Assembly (NCBI GenBank): GCA_947627375.1
Contig: CANQVR010000002.1
Span: 1 to 44,724 of the forward strand
From: an uncultured Bacilli bacterium
GTDB taxonomy: Bacteria; Bacillota_I; Bacilli_A; RF39; UBA660
DNA length: 44,724 nucleotides
Direction of reading: 5' to 3'
The notes under the pieces are model-generated. The model saw only the letters and a list, made by a program, of their open reading frames with translations, did not search any database and was not told the DNA's origin. The position numbers and the translations under genes are program-made. Shown piece by piece: positions 7,402 to 36,410 of this stretch; position 1 is the first letter of the stretch, and each line of letters opens with the position of its first letter.

Positions 7402-8235
7402 TTAGATAATTTCCAATTCATCTATTTTTAAAATATGTTTTTGATTCTTAATACAAAAATCTATAAAAGTATATAAATCTACTTTTCTAAGTTGTTTTTC
7501 ATACGTGTATTTAGAAACATCAAAAACTATTTTATCACGTTTCATATATTTTACTAAGTCATCTTTTTTAACACCTAAATACATAAGCCAATATGGATAT
7601 ATTTGCGTCTTTAAAAATTTAAGTGACTCTTCTCCTGATAAATATTTACTCTTACCAGTAATACGAGTGGCAAACTCGTTTAGTACCGCAAGTTCAGCTA
7701 CAGCTTTAACTATATCTTGATAATCTTTTTTAAAATCTTTAAGTTCTCTTTTAATAATTTCAAAAACTATATGCATCAAATTAGCTACTTCAGTTTTATG
7801 TTTAGAACCAAGAGTTAAAGTATTAACCTTAGAAACTGGTGGTTTGGTTACTGTAGAACACTTAAGTTTAGGTGTTATTACCAAAACTTGATATTGTTTT
7901 ATATCGATACGTAAAATATCTTTTAACTCTTTAATAGTTTGTTTTTTATATTTATCCCACATCTTAACTAAATAAACTCTATATTCTTCAGTTGCTTTTT
8001 TTAAATCTTTATAACCACTATAATCCATCATCAAATTATAAACAGTATCATCCCTCGGAATAAAATTTTTCGGATCTTTAAGAATAAGTTCATAATCACT
8101 ATAAGTTAAATTGTATTCTTTTTTATAACTTTGCCATAATTTTTGTTTATATCTATGTATATTTTCAGATATAGAAGCTTGAAATAACAAGTTCCAAATA
8201 AGTACATAATCATTTACTACAAATTTTAAGTTCAA
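7402..8235 (-). CDS. Hypothetical protein
   Basis: 277-aa ORF directly downstream of polC. No motif recognised. Confidence 0.5.
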   Translation of the reverse strand: MNLKFVVNDYVLIWNLLFQASISENIHRYKQKLWQSYKKEYNLTYSDYELILKDPKNFIPRDDTVYNLMMDYSGYKDLKKATEEYRVYLVKMWDKYKKQTIKELKDILRIDIKQYQVLVITPKLKCSTVTKPPVSKVNTLTLGSKHKTEVANLMHIVFEIIKRELKDFKKDYQDIVKAVAELAVLNEFATRITGKSKYLSGEESLKFLKTQIYPYWLMYLGVKKDDLVKYMKRDKIVFDVSKYTYEKQLRKVDLYTFIDFCIKNQKHILKIDELEII

Positions 8236-8333: not shown

Positions 8334-9209
8334 TTAAAAAGTCTTAACTAGAAAATAAATAGCTGTTATAATTCCACATACTAATATTAAAACTAAACCT
8401 ATTTTTAAAGCTCCCATTAATTTAGAAGGCCTATCTTCCATTCCACTAAAATTAAAATCTTTATCAGATAGATCCATCGATTTAGTATAAAAAGATTTAT
8501 CCATATCTTTTAATATATCAGAATCAGTCTTACTACTTGTTTCTTTAGCTTTAATGATATCTACTTTCTTTAAAGTATCTTGATCTAAAATATCTTTACT
8601 AAAATTAAGTTTAGTATCATTACTAGGTATTTGATCTTCTAAGTTACTAGTCATAAGTTCACTTAATAAATCTACACTAGTAGCTTGATCGATTTCTCCT
8701 TTTAAAGTTTTAGAAGTAATCGTATCGATTAAATCTCTTAACTCTTCTTCATCAGGATTATTTTTACTTTCTCTTTCTTTACGATAATTTTCAAGCTCAC
8801 TTGGATTCAAGCTCGCCAAAATATTATAATTAGTATTTTTAAGTTTACGTTTTTTATCTAATTCATCGACATCTACTCTCGTATCTCTTGCTTCTTCTAA
8901 AATACGATTAATATCATATACTCTATTTTCATGATCTTGATATAAATGATTAAAATCATCTAATTCTTTTTTTACTCTTGGAGGTGGAGCAATTTCACTA
9001 TAGTCTTTATATTGATGATAGCCTTCTCTAGTTCTATAGTTTCTTTTTGCGGCATTTAAATCTATCGCATCTACTTGACTTATATCAGTAAAATTAGTAT
9101 ATTTTGTATTTTTACCTATATTACTATATAAATTTTGATTGCGACTAGAACGACGTGATGTTAAAGAATTGTTCTCTTGTGAACCATATCTATCCATACG
9201 ACTTGGCAT
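8334..9209 (-). CDS. Hypothetical tail-anchored membrane protein
   Basis: Start set at MPSRMDRY (ATG 9207-9209, GGAGG RBS). Charged, low-complexity body with a single C-terminal TM helix, LKIGLVLILVCGIITAIYFLV. Confidence 0.5.
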   Translation of the reverse strand: MPSRMDRYGSQENNSLTSRRSSRNQNLYSNIGKNTKYTNFTDISQVDAIDLNAAKRNYRTREGYHQYKDYSEIAPPPRVKKELDDFNHLYQDHENRVYDINRILEEARDTRVDVDELDKKRKLKNTNYNILASLNPSELENYRKERESKNNPDEEELRDLIDTITSKTLKGEIDQATSVDLLSELMTSNLEDQIPSNDTKLNFSKDILDQDTLKKVDIIKAKETSSKTDSDILKDMDKSFYTKSMDLSDKDFNFSGMEDRPSKLMGALKIGLVLILVCGIITAIYFLVKTF

Positions 9210-9330
9210 ATTTTTACCTCCAATCTTACTATAAGTGTAACATATTGTCGAAAAAAACAAAAGAAAGTAATTAACTATTTACGTAAAATCTTTTTTAGTT
9301 TATAATAAAAGTGTAAAGGAGAAGTTAAAA

Positions 9331-11391: not shown

Positions 11392-11600
11392 AAAATTAAA
11401 ACCACATTACATGCCAGGAGCTTGTAATGCGGTACCATCCTTACTTAACTTAATTTCTATAACGGTATAACCGGAATTACTTTTCATAATTCTACTAAGA
11501 AGGTAGTAATTTATTTATTCTTTCCTTGTTTACACCTACCACAAGGTCTCTTTAAAAGATAATAAACAAATCTTGTCCTTCCTCATCGTATTTACATTTT
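11392..11600 (-). promoter_or_regulatory. T-box leader (Thr specifier) controlling thrS
   Basis: Minus-strand leader contains an AGAGA box, a candidate specifier ACU followed by A (plus-strand AGT at 11505-11507) and the T-box sequence GGATGGTACCGCA. The terminator helix CCGCATTACA...TGTAATGTGG is followed by TTTTAATTTT. Confidence 0.8.
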
Positions 11601-11635: not shown

Positions 11636-12466
11636 TTATTTTAATTTCTTTTGATAAACTTTAGTTTTTGATGTATATGCCTCAAACATTAAATCTACTA
11701 AATTATCTATCTTTTCCATATCGATACTCGATTTTATTTCTTTTATAAAATAGTCTTCTAAAAATATTTTAATATCACTTTCTTCATAATTACTATTGTC
11801 TTTATATGAAAATGGCATACTTGTAAGTAAATTTTTAGCTATCGCAATATTTTCTTTTTTATCTATTAACCATTTTATTGGTTCTACTTTTACCCAATGT
11901 GTTTCTCCATATCTTGCTTCTTTTCCATTTGAAAATTGCCTATTACTATATATATTTAATTTATTTTCCATTCTTACATATTTATTATTTTGATAAATAT
12001 ACTCTTGATATTTTTCTTTTTCTTCTTTTAACATTGAAGTATAACTTTTTTTAGTTTCTTTAAGATTTCTTTTTTTATATAAATTTTCTAATTTCGTGTC
12101 TAAATATTTATCTACTATTGTCTTAGGATACTCTCCATATTCTACTATATCTCTATTGCTTTCTAATACTTTCTTAAGTTCTTCTTTATTTTCATAAATT
12201 TTAGTTAAATCAATCACCGGTCTAACTCCAAGACCAGTCATAAACGTATGACAAAAATTCATTTTACCAGTAAAATCGACATAAAACACATCATATACAT
12301 CATAAAAATTAAAAGTTCTAGTCCAATAATTTCCCATTCTATTATCATAGACTCCACCATTTATCATTTGATAAAAATCTGTTGCTTCTGCTTCTATTCC
12401 ATATTTTTTTAAAATATCCAAATTTTCTACTTGTTTTCTTGTAAGTAAAGTTATTTCATCTTTCAT
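11636..12466 (-). CDS. Array paralog A (CLec/DUF6273-like; most divergent, AT-rich loop)
   Basis: 276 aa. NYWTRTFNFYDVYDVFYVDFTGKMNFCHTFMTGLGVRPVIDL. Confidence 0.85.
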   Translation of the reverse strand: MKDEITLLTRKQVENLDILKKYGIEAEATDFYQMINGGVYDNRMGNYWTRTFNFYDVYDVFYVDFTGKMNFCHTFMTGLGVRPVIDLTKIYENKEELKKVLESNRDIVEYGEYPKTIVDKYLDTKLENLYKKRNLKETKKSYTSMLKEEKEKYQEYIYQNNKYVRMENKLNIYSNRQFSNGKEARYGETHWVKVEPIKWLIDKKENIAIAKNLLTSMPFSYKDNSNYEESDIKIFLEDYFIKEIKSSIDMEKIDNLVDLMFEAYTSKTKVYQKKLK

Positions 12467-12470
12467 ATGA

Positions 12471-13301
12471 CTACCTCACTTTCTGCTTTGCTTTCTTCTC
12501 TTCTGGCACATATGTCTCAAACATTAAATCTATTAAATTATCTATCTTTTCCGTATCTATACTTTTACTCGGCTCTATTTCTTTTATAAAATAATCTTCT
12601 AAAAATACTTTAATATCACTTTTCTCATAATCATCATCATTTTTATATGAAAATGGCATACATGTTAATAAATTTTTAGATAAGGCAATACTCGCATTTT
12701 TATCTATCAACCACTTTATTGGTTCTACTTTTAACCAATATGTTTTTCCTCTTATTGCTTTTCTTCTATTTATAAACTCACACTCTTCCCAATACATACT
12801 TGCTTCTTTTACTCTTATATATTTATTATTTTGATAAATATACTCTTGATATTTTTCTTTTTCTTCGTTTAACATCGAAGTATAACTTTTCTTCGTTCTT
12901 TTGAGTTTAACTTTTTGATATAATTCCTCTAACTTTTTTTCTAAATTTTCATCTACTACGGACTGAGGATATTCTCCATATTCTACTATATCTATATCAC
13001 TTTCTAATACTTTCCTTAGTTCTTCTTCATTTTCATAAATTTTAGACAACGATATTACTGGACGAACTCCATGAACAGGAAGAAAAAGAGCCCAGCACTC
13101 ACTATCAGAATCATCAACATAATAAACCTTAACCAATTTTTTAGCACATGGAGTTTTTGTCCAATAAGTTCCTGTTCCACAACAAATAAATCCATTTTGA
13201 ACTTGATAAAAATCAGTTAATCCAGCTATTTTCCCTTTTGTTTTTAAAACATCTAAATTTTCTGCCTGTTCTCTTGTAAGTAAAGTTATTTCCTCTTTCA
13301 T
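12471..13301 (-). CDS. Array paralog B (CLec/DUF6273-like; unrelated AT-rich loop)
   Basis: 276 aa. Its first 111 nt are identical to paralog D. Confidence 0.85.
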   Translation of the reverse strand: MKEEITLLTREQAENLDVLKTKGKIAGLTDFYQVQNGFICCGTGTYWTKTPCAKKLVKVYYVDDSDSECWALFLPVHGVRPVISLSKIYENEEELRKVLESDIDIVEYGEYPQSVVDENLEKKLEELYQKVKLKRTKKSYTSMLNEEKEKYQEYIYQNNKYIRVKEASMYWEECEFINRRKAIRGKTYWLKVEPIKWLIDKNASIALSKNLLTCMPFSYKNDDDYEKSDIKVFLEDYFIKEIEPSKSIDTEKIDNLIDLMFETYVPEEKKAKQKVR

Positions 13302-13305
13302 ATGA

Positions 13306-14136
13306 CTACCTCACTTTCTGCTTTGCTTTCTTCTCTTTTGGTACATAAGTTACAAACATTAAATCTATTAAATTATCTATCTTTTCCATATTTATACTTT
13401 TACTCGGTTCTATTTCTTTTATAAAATAATTTTCTAAAAATACTTTAATATCACTTTTCTCATAATCATTATCATTCTCATATGAAAACGGCATAGCGGT
13501 AAGTACATTTTTAGCTATCGCAATACTCTTTTTTTTATCTATTAACCACTCTATTGGCTCTACTTTTAACCAATATGTTTCTCCTTTTATTGCTTTTCTT
13601 CCATTTGCAAATTCACAATCATCCATAGATATATTTGCTTCTTTTACTCTTATATACTTATTGTTTTGATAAAAATACTCTTGATACTTTTCTTTTTCTT
13701 CTTTTAACATCGAAGTGTAACTTTTATTAGTTTCTTTAAGATTTCCTCTTTGATATAACCTTTCTAACTTTTTCTCTAAATCGCAATCTACTACTATCTT
13801 AGGATATTCTCCGTACTCTACTATATCTCTATTACTTTCTAATACTTTATTTAATTTTTCTTCTGATTTATAGATTTGAGATAACGGTATTACCGGACGG
13901 ACCCCAAAGTAGGAATCGTACACACTATCGTAGCTCACATAGCCGCAGCCTACATAGAATACGCAGAACGAGAAGTCAGAATACGGAGTTTTGGTCCAAT
14001 AGTCCCCTTTTCCATAATGAACATATCCTCCTTGAATTATATAAAAATCTGTTTCATCTGCTTCTATTCCATATTTCTTTAAAATATCTAAATTTTTTAC
14101 TTGTTTTCTTGTAAGTAAAGTTATTTCATCTTCCAT
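13306..14136 (-). CDS. Array paralog C (carries a partly decayed GC-rich variable cassette)
   Basis: 276 aa. Shares a block of about 205 nt identical to D downstream of the cassette. Confidence 0.85.
   Translation of the reverse strand: MEDEITLLTRKQVKNLDILKKYGIEADETDFYIIQGGYVHYGKGDYWTKTPYSDFSFCVFYVGCGYVSYDSVYDSYFGVRPVIPLSQIYKSEEKLNKVLESNRDIVEYGEYPKIVVDCDLEKKLERLYQRGNLKETNKSYTSMLKEEKEKYQEYFYQNNKYIRVKEANISMDDCEFANGRKAIKGETYWLKVEPIEWLIDKKKSIAIAKNVLTAMPFSYENDNDYEKSDIKVFLENYFIKEIEPSKSINMEKIDNLIDLMFVTYVPKEKKAKQKVR
13891..13986 (-). other. Variable cassette of paralog C (32 codons; GC-rich but with AT3 drift and a broken GC hairpin)
   Basis: Coding strand: CCG TAT TCT GAC TTC TCG TTC TGC GTA TTC TAT GTA GGC TGC GGC TAT GTG AGC TAC GAT AGT GTG TAC GAT TCC TAC TTT GGG GTC CGT CCG GTA. 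Confidence 0.6.
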
Positions 14137-14140
14137 ATAA

Positions 14141-14965
14141 CTACCTCACTTTCTGCTTTGCTTTCTTCTCTTTTGGTACATAAGTTACAAACATCAAATC
14201 TACTAAATTATCTATCCTTTCCATATTTATACTTGGTTTTATTTCTTTTATAAAATAATCTTCTAAAAATACTTTAACAACACTTTTTTCATAATCATTA
14301 TCATGTTCATATGAAAACGGCATAGCGGTAAGTACATTTTTTGCTATCGCAATTTTCGCATTTTTATCTATTAACCATTCTATTGGTTCTACTTTTAACC
14401 AATATGTTTCTCCTTTTATTGCTTTTCTTCCATTTGCAAATTCACAATCATCCATAGATATATTTGCTTCTTTTACTCTTATATACTTATTGTTTTGATA
14501 AAAATACTCTTGATACTTTTCTTTTTCTTCTTTTAACATCGAAGTGTAACTTTTATTAGTTTCTTTAAGATTTCCTCTTTGATATAACCTTTCTAACGTT
14601 TCATCTAAATCGCAATCTACTACTGTCTTAGGATATTCTCCGTATTCTACTATATCTCTATTACTTTCTAATATTTTATTTAATTCTTCTTCTGATTTAT
14701 AGATTTGAGATAATGGTATTACGGGGCGGACCCCAATGCCGGTGTCGTACGCGCCGTTGCTGCTCAAGCCGCCGGAGGTGACATAGAACACGCAGTACGA
14801 GTTGCCGGAATTCGGAGTTTTGGTCCAATAAATTCCTTTTCCAGCATCATCCAATCCATTTTGAACTTGATAAAAATCAGTTAATCCAGCTATTTTCCCT
14901 TTTGTTTTTAAAACATCTAAATTTTCTGCCTGTTCTCTTGTAAGTAAAGTTATTTCCTCTTTCAT
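14141..14965 (-). CDS. Array paralog D (carries a GC-rich NNC variable cassette)
   Basis: 274 aa. YWTKTPNSGNSYCVFYVTSGGLSSNGAYDTGIGVRPVIPL. Confidence 0.85.
   Translation of the reverse strand: MKEEITLLTREQAENLDVLKTKGKIAGLTDFYQVQNGLDDAGKGIYWTKTPNSGNSYCVFYVTSGGLSSNGAYDTGIGVRPVIPLSQIYKSEEELNKILESNRDIVEYGEYPKTVVDCDLDETLERLYQRGNLKETNKSYTSMLKEEKEKYQEYFYQNNKYIRVKEANISMDDCEFANGRKAIKGETYWLKVEPIEWLIDKNAKIAIAKNVLTAMPFSYEHDNDYEKSVVKVFLEDYFIKEIKPSINMERIDNLVDLMFVTYVPKEKKAKQKVR
14720..14815 (-). other. Candidate DGR variable region (VR) of paralog D, 32 codons
   Basis: About 64% G+C by hand count. NNC codons are interleaved with invariant scaffold codons. It ends in GGGGTCCGCCCC. Confidence 0.6.
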
Positions 14966-14969
14966 ATAA

Positions 14970-15800
14970 CTACCTCACTTTCTGCTTTGCTTTCTTCTCT
15001 TTTGGTACATATGTCTCAAACATCAAATCTACTAAATTATCTATCTTTTCTATATTTACACTTGCTTCTATTTCTTTTATAAAATTCTTATTTAAAAATA
15101 TTTTAATATCACTTTTTTCATAATCATTAGAATTATAACACGAAAAAGGCATATTGGTAAGTACATTTTTTGCTATAGCAATTTTCGCGTTTTTATCTAT
15201 TAACCATTCTATTGGTTCTACTTTTACCCAATATGTTTGTTCACTTTTTGCTTCTCTTCCATTTGCAAAATGATCATCCAAAAACACATATGAAATTCCT
15301 ACTCTTACATATTTATTATCATGATAACTATACTCTTGATATTCTATTTTCTTTTGTTTTAACATTGTTAATATAGAAGTATAATTTTTTCCGGTTTCTT
15401 TTAATTTACCCATGCTATATAATCTTTCTAAATTTTTTTCTAAATATTGATCTATGACTGTCTGAGGATATTCTCCATATTCTACTATATCTATATTACT
15501 TTCTAATACTTTATTTAATTTTTCCTCAGATTTATAAATTCTTGATAAGGGCATCACCGGACGTATTCCATGAGACTCAAAAGCAAGATCATGATTTATA
15601 TTAACATCATCATAGATAGCAAGCAAGAAACTTTTAGTATCTCCATCTGGAGTTTTGGTCCAATAAGGGCCTTTTCGATTATCAACATAACCTCCTTGAA
15701 TCATATAAAAATCAGTTGCTTCTGCTTTTTTTCCATATTTCTTTAAAATAGCTAAATTTTCTGTTTGTTCTTCTGTAAGTAAAGTTATTTCATCTTCCAT
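14970..15800 (-). CDS. Array paralog E (AT-rich loop)
   Basis: 276 aa. Confidence 0.85.
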   Translation of the reverse strand: MEDEITLLTEEQTENLAILKKYGKKAEATDFYMIQGGYVDNRKGPYWTKTPDGDTKSFLLAIYDDVNINHDLAFESHGIRPVMPLSRIYKSEEKLNKVLESNIDIVEYGEYPQTVIDQYLEKNLERLYSMGKLKETGKNYTSILTMLKQKKIEYQEYSYHDNKYVRVGISYVFLDDHFANGREAKSEQTYWVKVEPIEWLIDKNAKIAIAKNVLTNMPFSCYNSNDYEKSDIKIFLNKNFIKEIEASVNIEKIDNLVDLMFETYVPKEKKAKQKVR

Positions 15801-15804
15801 ATAA

Positions 15805-16638
15805 CTACCTCACTTTCTGTTTTACTTTCTTTTTCTTTGGTACATATACATCAAACATTAAATCTACTAAATTATCTAATTTTTTCGTATTTATACTTGA
15901 TTTTATTTCTTTTATAAAATATTTTTCTAAAAATATTTTAACATCACTTTTCTCGTAATTATTATTTGCTCCAAATGAAAATGGCATATTGGCAAGTACA
16001 TTATTAGCTATTGCTAACTTTTCTTTTTTATCTATTAACCACTTTATCGGTTCTACTTTTAACCAATATGTTTCTCCTTCCATTAATTCTCTTCCATTTG
16101 CAAAATGTTTACTATCATATACATCTAATTTATTTTCCATCCTGATGTATTTATTATTCTGATAAATATATTCTTGATAATTTATTTTTTGTTCATCAAA
16201 AAGTAAATTATAAACTTTCTCAGTTTTTAAAAGTATTTTTTTTCGATATAGGCTTTCTAACTTTTTCTCTAAATCGCAATCTACTATTGTCTTAGGATAT
16301 TCTCCATATTCTACTATATTTCTATTACTTTCTAATACTTTATTTAATTCTTCTTCAGATTTATAGATTTTAGATAACGGTATTACTGGGCGAACACCAA
16401 CACTGACGTTGTAGGCATAACTTATCTGCACATCACCATAGTTATCAACATGTAAGACATCGCTAAAATTACAGGAAGACGGAGTTTTTGTCCAATAGCA
16501 TCCTTTTCTTTCATCATCAAAATAAAATCCACCTTGAATTATATAAAAGTCAGTTACTTCTGTTTCCTTTCCATATTTCTTTAAAATATCCAAATTTTCC
16601 ACTTGTTCTTTTGTAAGTAAAGTTATTTCATCTTCCAT
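15805..16638 (-). CDS. Array paralog F (33-codon loop, intermediate composition)
   Basis: 277 aa. Confidence 0.85.
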   Translation of the reverse strand: MEDEITLLTKEQVENLDILKKYGKETEVTDFYIIQGGFYFDDERKGCYWTKTPSSCNFSDVLHVDNYGDVQISYAYNVSVGVRPVIPLSKIYKSEEELNKVLESNRNIVEYGEYPKTIVDCDLEKKLESLYRKKILLKTEKVYNLLFDEQKINYQEYIYQNNKYIRMENKLDVYDSKHFANGRELMEGETYWLKVEPIKWLIDKKEKLAIANNVLANMPFSFGANNNYEKSDVKIFLEKYFIKEIKSSINTKKLDNLVDLMFDVYVPKKKKVKQKVR

Positions 16639-16642
16639 ATAA

Positions 16643-17470
16643 CTACCTCACTTTTTGTTTTGCTTTCTTCTTCGGTACATATACATCAAACATCAAATCT
16701 ATTAAATTATCTATCTTTTCCATATCCATACTTTTACTCGGGTCTATTTCATTTATAAAATATTTTTCTAAAAACACTTTAATATTACTTTTCTCATAAT
16801 TATTATTTCCTCTATATGAAAATGGCATAGTAGTAAGTGCATTTTTAGCTATCGCAATTTTCGCATTTTTATCCATTAACCACTCTATTGGTTCTACCTT
16901 TAACCAATATGTTTCTCCTTTTATTGCTTTTCTTCCATTTACAAACTCATAAGCGTTATATATATTTGCCTCTTTTACTCTTATATATTTATTATTTTGA
17001 TACTTGTACTCTTGATACTTTTCTTTTTTTCTTTTTAACATCGAAGTATATCTTTTTTTAGTTTCTTTAAGCTTTCCATTTTGATATAAATTTTCTAACT
17101 TTTTCTCTATTTTTTCATCTACTACTGTCTGAGGATATTCTCCATATTCTATTACTTCAATACCATTAGATTTACTTATATTAAAGCCTTCTTTAGATTG
17201 ATAGATTTGAGATAATGGTATTACGGGGCGGACCCCATAGCTGGAGTCGTCCGCGTAGTCGTAGTTCACATCGCCGCCGGAGCCGACATAGAACACGTCG
17301 TACGAGTTATCGGAATCCGGAGTTTTGGTCCAATAAAATCCTTTTCCAGCAATACCCAATCCTCTTTGACTTTTATAAAAATCTGTTTCCTCTGCTTCCT
17401 TTCCATATTTTTTTAAGATATCTAAATTTTCTACTTGTTCTTTCGTAAGTAGAGTTATTTCATTTTCCAT
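16643..17470 (-). CDS. Array paralog G (carries a GC-rich NNC variable cassette)
   Basis: 275 aa. YWTKTPDSDNSYDVFYVGSGGDVNYDYADDSSYGVRPVIPL. Confidence 0.85.
   Translation of the reverse strand: MENEITLLTKEQVENLDILKKYGKEAEETDFYKSQRGLGIAGKGFYWTKTPDSDNSYDVFYVGSGGDVNYDYADDSSYGVRPVIPLSQIYQSKEGFNISKSNGIEVIEYGEYPQTVVDEKIEKKLENLYQNGKLKETKKRYTSMLKRKKEKYQEYKYQNNKYIRVKEANIYNAYEFVNGRKAIKGETYWLKVEPIEWLMDKNAKIAIAKNALTTMPFSYRGNNNYEKSNIKVFLEKYFINEIDPSKSMDMEKIDNLIDLMFDVYVPKKKAKQKVR
17222..17320 (-). other. Candidate DGR variable region (VR) of paralog G, 33 codons
   Basis: About 61% G+C and about 18% A on the coding strand, by hand count. It has the same scaffold and the same GGGGTCCGCCCC 3' end as D. Confidence 0.6.
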
Positions 17471-17474
17471 ATAA

Positions 17475-18313
17475 CTACCTCACTTTCTGCTTTGCTTTCT
17501 TCTTTTTTGGTACATATGTCTCAAACATTAAATCTACTAAATTATCTATCTTTTCCATATCTATACTTTTACTCGGCTCTATTTCTTTTATAAAATAATC
17601 TTCTAAAAATACTTTAATATCGCTTTTCTCATAATCATTATTTCCTTTATATGAAAATGGCATAGTGGTAAGTACATACTCAGATATAGCTATTTCTTCC
17701 TTCTTATCTATTAACCACTTTATTGGTTTTACTTCTATCCAATATGTTTTCCCATCTATTGCTTCTCTTCCAAACCCATAATGAAACTTAGAATGCTCTT
17801 TAAAAAGAACAGACTTTTTTACTCTTATATATTTATTATTTTTATATTTATATTCTTGATATTTTTTTCTTTTTCTTTTAACATTGAAGTATAACTTTTT
17901 TTAGTTTTTTTCAATCTATCTTCTTGATATAAATTTTCAAGTTCTTCTTCCAAATCCTCTTCAACTACAAACTGAGGATATTCTCCATATTCTACTGTTC
18001 CTATTTTACTTTCTAATACCTTATTTAATTCTTCTTCAGATTTATAGATTTGAGATAATGATATTGCGGGACGAACACCAAAGCTAGTATCACTTGAACC
18101 ACCTGTAATCACATCACCGCTAGGATAAGAATAAAAAACCTCATTCGAATTACTGATATATGGGGTTTTAGTCCAACATTCTCCTCTTCCAGAATAATAT
18201 GTTCCTTTTTGAACTATATAAAAATCAGTTATTAGATTTTCTTTTCCATAGCCTTTTAAAACATCTGATTTTTCTATTTGTTTTTTCGTAAGTAGAGTTA
18301 TTTCTTCTTTCAT
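17475..18313 (-). pseudogene. Array paralog H, split by a 1-nt frameshift in an A7/T7 run
   Basis: The span is 839 nt, not a multiple of 3. The N-terminal ORF 17825..18313 derails after SYTSMLKEKEK. The other frame reads on as YQEYKYKNNKYIRVK...WIEVKPIKWLIDK...MPFSYKGNN through to the normal C-terminus, which is the track ORF 17475..17663. Confidence 0.8.
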
Positions 18314-18404
18314 ATAATTACCACACTTTCTAATTTATTTTTTTGACAAAAAGAGACTACTGAGATCTTAAATATCTAATTTCTCAAGTAGCCCCTTAAT
18401 ATTT

Positions 18405-35169: not shown

Positions 35170-35847
35170 TTAATTCCTTAAAATAGCTTCATTAACATCA
35201 ACTATATAATTATCCATAGGAGTATTCATTCCTAACATATCATTCATATTAGTCATGTTATTCATATTATTATCTACTTGATCTTGTTTTTTATTAAACT
35301 TTTTTTGATAATAATTAAATAATTCTTTAAAACGATTATAATGTACTATCTCACGTTGTCTTAACCATAGAAGTGGTCTAAGTACATCAGGATCATCAGT
35401 TAAATCAATAATATTTTCATAGACAGCACGAGCTTTTTGTTCTGCAGCCATATCCTCAGATAAATCCGCAAGAGGATCTCCAGTTGTCGAAATATAAGTT
35501 ATTGTAAACGGTACTCCATTAGAATCAGTTGGATAAAGAGCTTTTTTATGTTCTGCATAGTGAGCATCTAAGCCAGCTGCTTTAATCTCATCAATTGTGG
35601 CATCTTTCATAAGTTGATAAACCATTGCCGCAATGATCTCTAAATGTGAAAGTTCTTCAGTTGCAATATCAGTAAGTAATGCTTTACCTTTATTATCAGG
35701 CATTGTATATCTTTGATTAAAATAACGAAGTGCTGCCGCAAGTTCACTTTGACTACCACCATATTGATCGATTAAAAGTTTTGCCAAACGAACATTTTTA
35801 GTTTTAATATCAACTGGAAATTGTAATCTTTTTTGATATCTAAACAT
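35170..35847 (-). CDS. cotJC: Spore coat protein CotJC (manganese-catalase family)
   Basis: MFRYQKRLQFPVDIKTKNVRLAKLLIDQYGGSQSELAAALRYFNQRY and EELSHLEII ferritin-like motifs. Confidence 0.85.
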   Translation of the reverse strand: MFRYQKRLQFPVDIKTKNVRLAKLLIDQYGGSQSELAAALRYFNQRYTMPDNKGKALLTDIATEELSHLEIIAAMVYQLMKDATIDEIKAAGLDAHYAEHKKALYPTDSNGVPFTITYISTTGDPLADLSEDMAAEQKARAVYENIIDLTDDPDVLRPLLWLRQREIVHYNRFKELFNYYQKKFNKKQDQVDNNMNNMTNMNDMLGMNTPMDNYIVDVNEAILRN

Positions 35848-36334
35848 TACTTACACCTCCTTTATCAAACGGAAATGTTTGTTCTTCCCATAAAAATGGT
35901 GATTTAACAAGTGCATCGCTACTAACTGTAAGTGGACCATATTGACTTTCATACTTTTCCAACAATTCATTAGCGCGTCTTCTATAATCATTAAATAAAT
36001 TTAATGCTTTTTTATCTTCAGGATGTAAGTCTAAATAAAGATTTAATTCATGAGCAGCAAAATCATATTCACTAAGTTCTAAAAATAATTTTTGTCTTTC
36101 ATCTTTAGGTGTTAACTTATATGGTTTATAATTTTTATATGGAGTATATAAATCTTTAAATAAATTACCTTTTTCATATGCCTCTTTTGGTGCAAATAAC
36201 TCCATTCCTCCAACAGTTACTCTATCATCTGCACTTCTATCCATATTATAATTATCATAAGATGGTACATAAGAAGTATTATTGATATTACTTCTTAAGT
36301 TATTATAATTATCCAAATAGTTATAGTTATACAT
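35840..36334 (-). CDS. Fused CotJA-CotJB spore coat protein
   Basis: Start set at MYNYNY (GAAGGAGG RBS). The N-terminal part has a CotJA-like segment, FAPKEAYEKGNLFKDLYTPY. The C-terminal part has the CotJB signature YDFAAHELNLYLDLHPEDKKALNLFNDY...YESQYGPLT. Confidence 0.65.
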   Translation of the reverse strand: MYNYNYLDNYNNLRSNINNTSYVPSYDNYNMDRSADDRVTVGGMELFAPKEAYEKGNLFKDLYTPYKNYKPYKLTPKDERQKLFLELSEYDFAAHELNLYLDLHPEDKKALNLFNDYRRRANELLEKYESQYGPLTVSSDALVKSPFLWEEQTFPFDKGGVSNV

Positions 36335-36410
36335 AATAGCCTCCTTCATAATTAAAGTATTCTTTTAGGACTATCGTGTATAGATATTAACCTAGAATTT
36401 AAAAAAATTA

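Follow-up and report, generated by a model that had tools for sequence, protein, structure and literature searches.

This study concerns an array of eight related genes on the minus strand of a 44,724-nucleotide stretch of DNA from an uncultured Bacilli bacterium (contig CANQVR010000002.1 of assembly GCA_947627375.1; the whole 44.7-kb stretch is referred to here as the window). We consider it likely that these genes are tandem, free-standing cytoplasmic recognition modules belonging to a large and uncharacterised target family of diversity-generating retroelements (DGRs), that the hypervariable loop which distinguishes them is a variable region (VR) written by such an element, and that the modules serve an ATPase machine. 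Past writing of the loops by a DGR is well supported, and current activity is not part of the claim. The initial annotation, made from the window alone, had described the array well, but it left the variable loop without an explanation and the proteins without a family, whereas the loop can now be read as a DGR VR.

The array (11636-18313) runs head to tail from copy H to copy A. Copy H (17475..18313), the first, is a pseudogene read as two open reading frames (ORFs; 17825-18313, 162 amino acids, and 17475-17663, 62 amino acids). Its lesion is the loss of one nucleotide from an A-run near 17879, with the rest of the gene open in another frame, and the same break is found on an independent contig, L001. 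The other copies are G (16643..17470, 275 amino acids), F (15805..16638, 277), E (14970..15800, 276), D (14141..14965, 274), C (13306..14136, 276), B (12471..13301, 276) and A (11636..12466, 276), the last of which has a divergent C-terminal tail. The ORF list thus bears out the annotated seven intact genes of 274-277 amino acids and one frameshifted copy, and the start-to-start period of 829-843 bp agrees with the annotated figure of about 835 bp. Pairwise identity among the eight copies is 70-88%, and every VR is unique. Because the order of the copies and their loops recur on L001, which comes from another assembly and carries H-G-F-E-D with identical VRs, the array is not a chance pattern. 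The proteins had also been described as cytoplasmic, lacking a signal peptide or transmembrane helix, and this is supported by a maximum Kyte-Doolittle hydropathy (19-residue window) of 1.05.

Mean pairwise protein identity falls to 0.16-0.44 in alignment columns 51-80, which extend from YWTKTP to GVRPVI, compared with 0.6-0.8 elsewhere. This trough is real, but to call the loop completely different in every copy, as was done at first, is an overstatement, since copies C, D and G share an invariant nucleotide scaffold inside it. The VR of copy G (17224..17317) contains 81 nt of NNC/NNT codons with a GC content of 0.56, and that of copy D (14722..14812) contains 78 nt with a GC content of 0.60; GC outside the VR is 0.22-0.27 across the genes, and 0.25-0.27 in D, G and C. 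In both fresh VRs an intact 13-nt boundary, GGGGTCCGCCCCG, comes next. The VR of copy C (13893..13983) is partly decayed: its GC content is 0.45, several of its third-position C's are now T or A, and its boundary, GGGGTCCGTCCGG, has two mismatches. The remaining five are decayed remnants, in copies F (16386..16479; GC 0.39, three boundary mismatches), H (18067..18160; 0.36, three), B (13058..13148; 0.35, four), E (15557..15647; 0.32, five) and A (12217..12310; 0.25, five), that of A being the most decayed. Two further fresh VRs, in the module genes P4 (GC 0.61) and P5 (GC 0.58), lie on contig L085, which comes from the same sample as L001. The four fresh copies D, G, P4 and P5 show no boundary mismatch, C shows two, and F, H, B, E and A show three to five; boundary integrity therefore tracks the freshness of the VR. 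The nucleotide signature of a DGR is seen in three of the eight copies, namely D, G and C.

This signature is clearest when the fresh VRs are compared with one another. Those of D, G, P4 and P5 align codon for codon, and invariant codons that contain no A (TCC, TCG, GTG, TTC, GTC, GGC and GCG) alternate with NNC/NNT codons. By codon position, the variable columns among these four number 19/14/1 in the 81-nt VR, compared with 26/25/33 in a 330-nt flank (Fisher p = 2.9e-5). The residues at the variable codons are all reachable from AAY codons, and K, E, Q, M and W do not occur. Over the 180 nt that precede the VR, the identity of G and P4 is 100% and 93%, yet about 25 VR positions differ. When the variable columns are set to A, the inferred template reads N-S-N-N-S-N-N-V-F-N-V-N-T-N-G-N-V-N-N-N-N-A-N-N-T-N-N-G-V-R-P, a translation that resembles the real template repeats (TRs) of relatives, such as ...VVNNNGNDNNNNVNNRNNGARP at locus L020. 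The boundary GGGGTCCGCCCCG is also our candidate for the GC-rich element, resembling the initiation of mutagenic homing (IMH) site, at the 3' end of the VR. Taken together, the intact GC-rich VRs and perfect boundaries of D, G, P4 and P5 argue for very recent writing.

The machinery is seen in the relatives of these genes. We clustered the neighbours of the family gene in 78 loci, and the fetched loci contained 95 family ORFs. In 21 loci a reverse transcriptase (RT) of about 350 amino acids lies directly upstream of the target; it matches Pfam RVT_1 and carries the motifs GLPLGNQ(S/T)SQWFA and YMDD. A bAvd-like protein of about 195 amino acids precedes the RT at these loci, and the TR, a repeat of the target's variable segment, is located between Avd and RT. 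We recovered 18 TR-VR pairs, in which 255 of the 288 mismatches fall at a template A. The rest are mostly in the final few bases, where the templates and targets of DGRs normally differ. The VR of the relatives ends at a family-invariant G-x-R-P, the position of GVRPVI in the window copies, and these copies can be aligned, across 85-100% of their length, with the RT-adjacent targets' N-terminal domain. Since the mismatches hit template A's and the VR ends at the shared G-x-R-P, the family is a bona fide DGR target family, and by this alignment the variable loop of the window proteins is the family VR. A GC excess is likewise seen in the VRs of the RT-linked relatives (+0.11 to +0.25).

The same loci point to a partner for the modules. 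Of the 95 family ORFs, 41 are fusions of at least 550 amino acids in which the ~270-residue domain is N-terminal and the C-terminal half carries a Walker A motif (GxSGxGKS) and resembles a MoxR-like AAA+ ATPase. A 133-amino-acid protein lies downstream in 36 loci, and a protein of 400-600 amino acids that matches Pfam DUF2201_N (SprT-like metallopeptidase) and DUF2201 (VWA-like) also lies downstream in 36 loci. A database search with the RT of a relative returned 3026 clusters (E <= 1e-40), and a search with the ATPase returned 3200 (E <= 1e-60). PADLOC recognises the relatives' RT and no other component. The same operon occurs in metagenome-assembled genomes (MAGs) of both gut Bacilli and gut Alphaproteobacteria (for example at L027 and L028), which suggests transfer between phyla. 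Two further loci deserve mention. At L057 (5256-13900), about six to seven tandem family copies or fragments stand beside a 684-amino-acid ORF in which an IstB-like ATPase is fused with a DGR-type RT's C-terminal part, and the DGR there may have been disrupted by an IS21-like element. At L093 (6001-11782), the target that follows the RT is called as ORFs of 76 and 231 amino acids and is followed by a 459-amino-acid AAA_5 protein; module and ATPase may have split independently here, or frameshifts may be responsible.

In the window organism, module and ATPase are separate. Contig L085 reads [partial module][P5][P4][AAA+, 402 amino acids][133 amino acids][DUF2201, 586 amino acids]. The 402-residue protein has weak matches to Sigma54_activat, AAA and AAA_5, and the gene after that of the 133-residue protein encodes DUF2201_N plus DUF2201. 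The 402-residue protein shares about 65% identity with the C-terminal halves of the fused relatives, and its closest database neighbours are almost all fusions of 620-630 amino acids. Because of this match, the recognition module appears to have been split from the ATPase and amplified in the window organism: the window has eight copies, the ATPase locus has three or more, and there is a singleton, P0011, with a promoter-like site of its own. That L085 and the array belong to one genome is inferred from sample, coverage and shared blocks of 100% identity. The DUF2201 protein of L085 (3524-5284) has a low-complexity insert of about five SQESGEEQxQDSNQ repeats; it is 586 amino acids long in one sample and 568 in two others (L099 and L100), and the number of repeats appears to vary.

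Copies that are otherwise 70-88% identical share 90-nt blocks of 100% identity (B/D, G/P4, H/P4, C/D and D/P5), a pattern that indicates frequent gene conversion among the copies and also between the two loci. Part of the shared blocks on short contigs could, however, reflect chimeric assembly. On L001, copy E (P0003; 10001-10825) combines the 5' half and VR of the window's E with a 3' half identical to blocks of P5 and D, a mosaic that could be due to either strain recombination or chimeric assembly.

The model that we favour is as follows. In the relatives, an Avd-TR-RT cassette upstream of the target rewrites the VR segment by adenine-specific mutagenic retrohoming. In the window organism, a DGR elsewhere in the genome would have written copies D and G recently and C earlier, in trans; since the cassette is not in the window, the array would represent either remote targets or the targets of a DGR only just lost. 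The cognate element may lie upstream of the ATPase locus, as it does in the relatives, or may have disappeared very recently. Copies with a mutated boundary (F, H, B, E and A) would have escaped rewriting and drifted toward 28% GC, and gene conversion shuffles blocks among the copies. The array most probably supplies interchangeable ligand-recognition subunits to the AAA+/133-residue/DUF2201 machine, a role proposed by analogy with the fused relatives and with MoxR-vWA systems (PMC10907252, PMC7159879). A more ambitious version, which we put forward only tentatively, is a two-tier intracellular repertoire: a library of at least 12 module genes at three or more loci, in which the DGR writes the copies with intact boundaries, gene conversion spreads and archives the results, and the modules plug in trans into a single ATPase/133-residue/peptidase-VWA complex. 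If true, this would be akin to a V-gene library combined with somatic hypermutation, in the cytoplasm of a small-genome gut Firmicute, and its machinery, with RT and ATPase clusters numbering more than 3000, would be a gut DGR class that is abundant, undescribed and shared by Bacilli and Alphaproteobacteria.

Several results weigh against this model. We detected no RT, Avd or TR in the window (by Pfam, and by tblastn with the RTs of two relatives, best E = 1.9), or on the contigs tied to the same organism (L001, L085-L090, L099 and L100); the cognate template is for this reason inferred and not observed. Copies F, H, B, E and A, five out of eight, look abandoned. The fresh VRs contain two exceptions to the expected pattern, one change at a non-A position (GTG to TTG in D) and one third-position C/T difference. 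A hairpin or cruciform downstream of the VR was considered and rejected, as the folding energies of D and G are like those of shuffled sequence. Across all available samples and assemblies, C, D, G, F, E, H, P4 and P5 each keep the same VR, and the available assemblies gave no direct evidence of ongoing diversification in the form of VR variants within or between populations. The Pfam match of the family to a known DGR target domain, described below, is sub-threshold, and neither Foldseek searches of PDB and BFVD (no C-type-lectin or other match; best E 0.16 and 0.14) nor a profile search of PDB sequences produced anything relevant. Finally, the link to the ATPase, VWA and peptidase components comes from homologues and from short contigs of the same samples, not from a closed genome.

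The search for the cassette was extended in several directions. No TR-like sequence lies outside the array within the window. An IUPAC pattern of the invariant VR positions had no matches in JGI metagenomes and IMG/VR, and a shorter pattern gave two chance matches only, in genomes of 58-60% GC. The best 120 of the 3026 RT clusters are all 64-99% identical, so that none of the clusters could be assigned to the window organism, and two candidate RT contigs came from other samples. The window itself encodes neither the MoxR-like AAA+ ATPase nor the VWA partner, and the organism's own ATPase is found only on contigs of up to 5.3 kb, all of which break in the array. Upstream of the singleton P0011, a stretch of 231 nt comprises a terminator-like hairpin plus a promoter-like site, and no RT. 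In L087-L090, which represent four assemblies of different samples, the sequence stops at exactly one shared base 231 nt upstream of P0011, which suggests a repeat or some other assembly-breaking feature just beyond. A retroelement is compatible with flanks that lack an RT, because DGRs are known to act on remote targets (PMC5758913).

These negative results do, however, leave room for a serious alternative, which we think possible, if clearly less probable: that a DGR wrote the loops and its cassette has since been lost, so that the array is an orphaned, germline-like set that now changes by duplication, drift and gene conversion alone. The missing RT and TR (in the window and on same-sample contigs) and the invariance of the VRs between samples would fit such a history, as would the clear decay series, with the boundary gone in five of eight copies. 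Precedents exist among the relatives, which include fixed versions without a DGR (P0013-P0019) and the seemingly IstB-disrupted RT of L057. Set against this, the VRs of D, G, P4 and P5 stand at 56-61% GC where the genome has 28%, essentially every third-position C survives in them, and all four share one 13-nt boundary without a mismatch, all of which points to very recent writing; and since the assemblies are fragmentary and break at arrays, the absence of the cassette from them is weak evidence. Differences between samples fall outside the VR, in a comparison of a few assembled contigs and cluster members of the same organism. The P0013-P0019 lineage itself has a conserved loop containing K, E and M and looks like a fixed version that is not diversified by a DGR.

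A quite different possibility, to which we give little credence, is that the eight-copy array or its mosaic copies result from mis-assembly of a smaller number of repeats in a MAG. All of the related contigs break inside arrays, the 3' half of copy E differs between the window and L001, and published cases of tandem targets bear the same caveat (PMC5758913). The eight copies are distinct, however, with 70-88% identity and unique VRs, and the independent assembly gives the order H-G-F-E-D with identical VRs. Mis-assembly may affect details of the array.

Ordinary divergence of paralogues in a surface loop, through diversifying selection or relaxed constraint and with no retroelement involved, seems to us more improbable still. 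It would suit the lack of an RT near the array, and copies A, B and E, taken alone, have no obvious DGR signature. It could also account for a second, smaller trough of identity at residues 171-180, which seems to vary in just this way. This patch (in copy C near 13597-13626; KEANISMDDC or MENKLNIYSN) is variable without any GC or NNC signature and may be a neighbouring surface loop under ordinary divergence. Such a process is nevertheless unable to produce tracts of NNC codons at 56-60% GC in a 28% GC genome, 33 of 34 variable columns at codon positions 1 and 2, residues that are exclusively AAY-reachable, or invariant codons free of A, and it leaves the TR-VR pairs of homologues at the same site unexplained. 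We see hardly any case for a housekeeping or regulatory function tied to thrS by read-through into its T-box leader, which the lack of a terminator between copy A and the thrS promoter/T-box and the tight spacing of the distant single-copy relative P0015 between thrS and a class II aminoacyl-tRNA synthetase gene would allow, given that thrS has a promoter-like site and leader of its own, that among 84 loci (tblastn) it adjoins the family gene in the P0015 lineage only (70-odd loci being without thrS), and that the dominant conserved neighbours are RT/Avd, the 133-residue protein and DUF2201; after the 84-locus scan this link was dropped and the adjacency taken as coincidence or a local ancestral position. 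P0015 itself (311 amino acids; L002/L003/L015, 10001-10936) occurs in a spore-former, with a 2-nt gap to thrS and a 4-nt overlap with the class II synthetase gene.

The way in which the copies are joined bears on their expression. Every junction consists of AAAGTGAGGTAG, 4 nt and ATG, following the pattern AAAGTGAGGTAG-T(T/C)AT-ATG, so that GAGGT is placed 6 nt before the next ATG, within the K-V-R-stop codons. The initial annotation was right that K-V-R-stop embeds a Shine-Dalgarno sequence and that the spacers are 4 nt long, but the spacer is TTAT in only five junctions, and in two (C-B and B-A) it is TCAT. Nor does the KVR tail ascribed to the proteins extend to the last of them: copy A ends in ...KVYQKKLK and, without KVR, has no embedded Shine-Dalgarno sequence. 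Upstream of copy H, a degenerate junction (18314..18336, minus strand) reads TTAGAAAGTGTGGTAATTAT followed by ATG and contains AAAGTGTGGTAATTATATG, in line with the suggestion that the duplication unit includes the junction; this sequence is a relic of the unit's boundary. The junction structure is compatible with translational coupling, and the copies would be coupled because head-to-tail duplication carried the stop/Shine-Dalgarno junction along.

The apparent size of the protein family depends on the type of search used. A word-indexed search found only 32 relatives, whereas a profile search of 1.84 billion representatives (50% clustering) found 3723 family members, 1088 of them at E <= 1e-30. 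Among GTDB species representatives, 240 loci encode relatives, and none is more than 37% identical to the window copies; there is no species-level relative in that set. Most of the hosts are uncultured gut Bacilli ('Tenericutes', Coprobacillus sp. CAG:605) or MAGs of gut Alphaproteobacteria. An origin of the family in phages or plasmids was dropped, as tblastn found no match in either collection. One relative, P0173 (4237 amino acids), has seven stretches that match the family profile.

Profile and structure searches, which had been suggested at the outset, gave limited results: Pfam offered only a sub-threshold DUF6273 match, and Foldseek nothing usable. The DUF6273 (PF19789) scores are 18.1, 19.2 and 20.9 bits, compared with a gathering cut-off of 23.5, and the match aligns residues ~13-88 to profile positions 105-171 of 172, that is, about 65 positions at the C-terminal end. 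The precomputed annotation of the sequence collection assigns PF19789 to several family members. The remaining ~190 residues of the window proteins have no Pfam match, and neither NCBIfam nor PADLOC has a match for these proteins. A circular permutation of DUF6273 was also considered, prompted by what we took to be a resemblance between YWLKVEPIEWL... and the N-terminal half of the domain; Pfam scans did not support it, the C-terminal halves of ten members giving no DUF6273 match even at E <= 10, and the idea was dropped. In an AlphaFold2 model (mean predicted local distance difference test score 88.9, predicted template modelling score 0.83), the VR forms a beta-hairpin (strands 58-63 and 66-71). 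The window proteins match no well-characterised family with a defined function, though the mechanism of their diversification is a known one.

Read along the minus strand, the array is preceded by comEC, a dnaI-like gene and the genes for an RNB-domain RNase and an M23 peptidase, in this order, and is followed by thrS, two ORFs without a Pfam match at E <= 0.001 (8334-9260 and 7402-8235; 308 and 277 amino acids) and polC. Its position between dnaI-RNB-M23 and thrS bears out the accessory insertion proposed initially. Also as annotated, no RT, integrase or transposase flanks the array, nor did Pfam (for RT, also tblastn) find one among the ORFs of the whole window. The M23 peptidase gene has upstream of it a promoter of sigma-70 type that is perfect (12/12) and extended by TG (19201-19173, minus strand), and a terminator-like bulged hairpin with a T-run follows that gene (~18355-18392, minus strand). 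We likewise found no convincing promoter between this hairpin and copy H, and the array is therefore without an obvious promoter of its own. At the other end, the expected lack of a terminator before the thrS leader was confirmed: a promoter-like site (TTGACA-16-TATGCT; 11629-11602, minus strand) lies a few bases past the stop codon of copy A, and the T-box leader of thrS (11413-11595, minus strand) scores 80.8 bits, below the Rfam gathering score of 93, in a full-length match with E = 4e-18. The window has a GC content of 27.9%. Because it encodes CotJB and a CotJC-type Mn-catalase (35170-36349, minus strand), the host is probably a spore-forming, low-GC Firmicute.

This work raises several points of wider interest. 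A hypervariable loop in tandem paralogues with no mobile-element gene nearby can be the footprint of a known mechanism. The architecture of the relatives, an N-terminal VR module with a MoxR-like AAA+ domain, the 133-residue protein and DUF2201, is very abundant in gut metagenomes. With eight neighbouring targets at stages from fresh writing to complete drift, the decay series could help to define what continued recognition of a target requires of it, and also the rate at which a VR, once abandoned by a DGR, relaxes in an AT-rich genome. Furthermore, if the modules do act in trans on one ATPase/VWA/peptidase machine, they would offer a tractable case of modular, hypermutable intracellular recognition. 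A search of the literature found no description of an N-terminal VR module fused to an AAA+ domain with DUF2201, nor of a detached, translationally coupled array of such modules, and a full-text search for 'retroelement' with DUF2201 gave nothing relevant.

The closest published parallels are the multi-target DGRs. Multiple, tandem (up to eight) and remote targets have been catalogued, including seven remote targets in Treponema denticola and eight tandem targets in Stenotrophomonas, and N-terminal VRs are reported to be rare (PMC5758913). As in those systems, several paralogous targets would share one template, the targets may be far from the RT, variation is limited to positions of TR adenines, and a GC-rich boundary marks the 3' end of the VR. 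The window differs in that its VR is near the N-terminus (80 codons into a gene of 275), that 44 kb contain neither RT nor TR, that decay is graded from copy to copy, and that the copies would be coupled through a duplicated stop/Shine-Dalgarno junction. With the prototype, the Mtd DGR of Bordetella phage BPP-1, the relatives share the logic of the Avd-TR-RT cassette, adenine-specific mutagenesis and AAY template codons, and a candidate GC-rich element again stands at the 3' end of the VR. However, the relatives' order is Avd-TR-RT-target, the target is not a tail fibre, and no significant hairpin follows the VR in the window.

The DUF6273 proteins, C-type-lectin-like DGR target domains of Faecalibacterium prophages and 'tentaclins', carry their VR at the C-terminal end (PMC11792537, PMC10743442). 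The window proteins match this C-terminal end (WW/YWTKT ... G-x-R-P), and their VR is similarly modelled as a surface beta-hairpin, but the matches fall below the Pfam cut-off over ~65 profile positions and Foldseek detected no lectin fold. The proteins are also cellular and cytoplasmic rather than components of a phage tail or receptor-binding apparatus, and the phage and plasmid collections hold no match. Cytoplasmic DGR-diversified components have been proposed as sensors in the MoxR-vWA 'ternary' conflict systems of multicellular bacteria (PMC10907252, PMC7159879). Here, by contrast, the variable domain stands at the N-terminus, either joined to the ATPase itself or split from it; the partner is DUF2201 (SprT-like metallopeptidase plus VWA) and not VMAP with a trypsin-like peptidase; and instead of multicellular cyanobacteria or purple sulfur bacteria, the hosts are gut Bacilli with small genomes and MAGs of gut Alphaproteobacteria. 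The array is thus an unusual expansion of a known type of system, the DGR target, and not a new kind.

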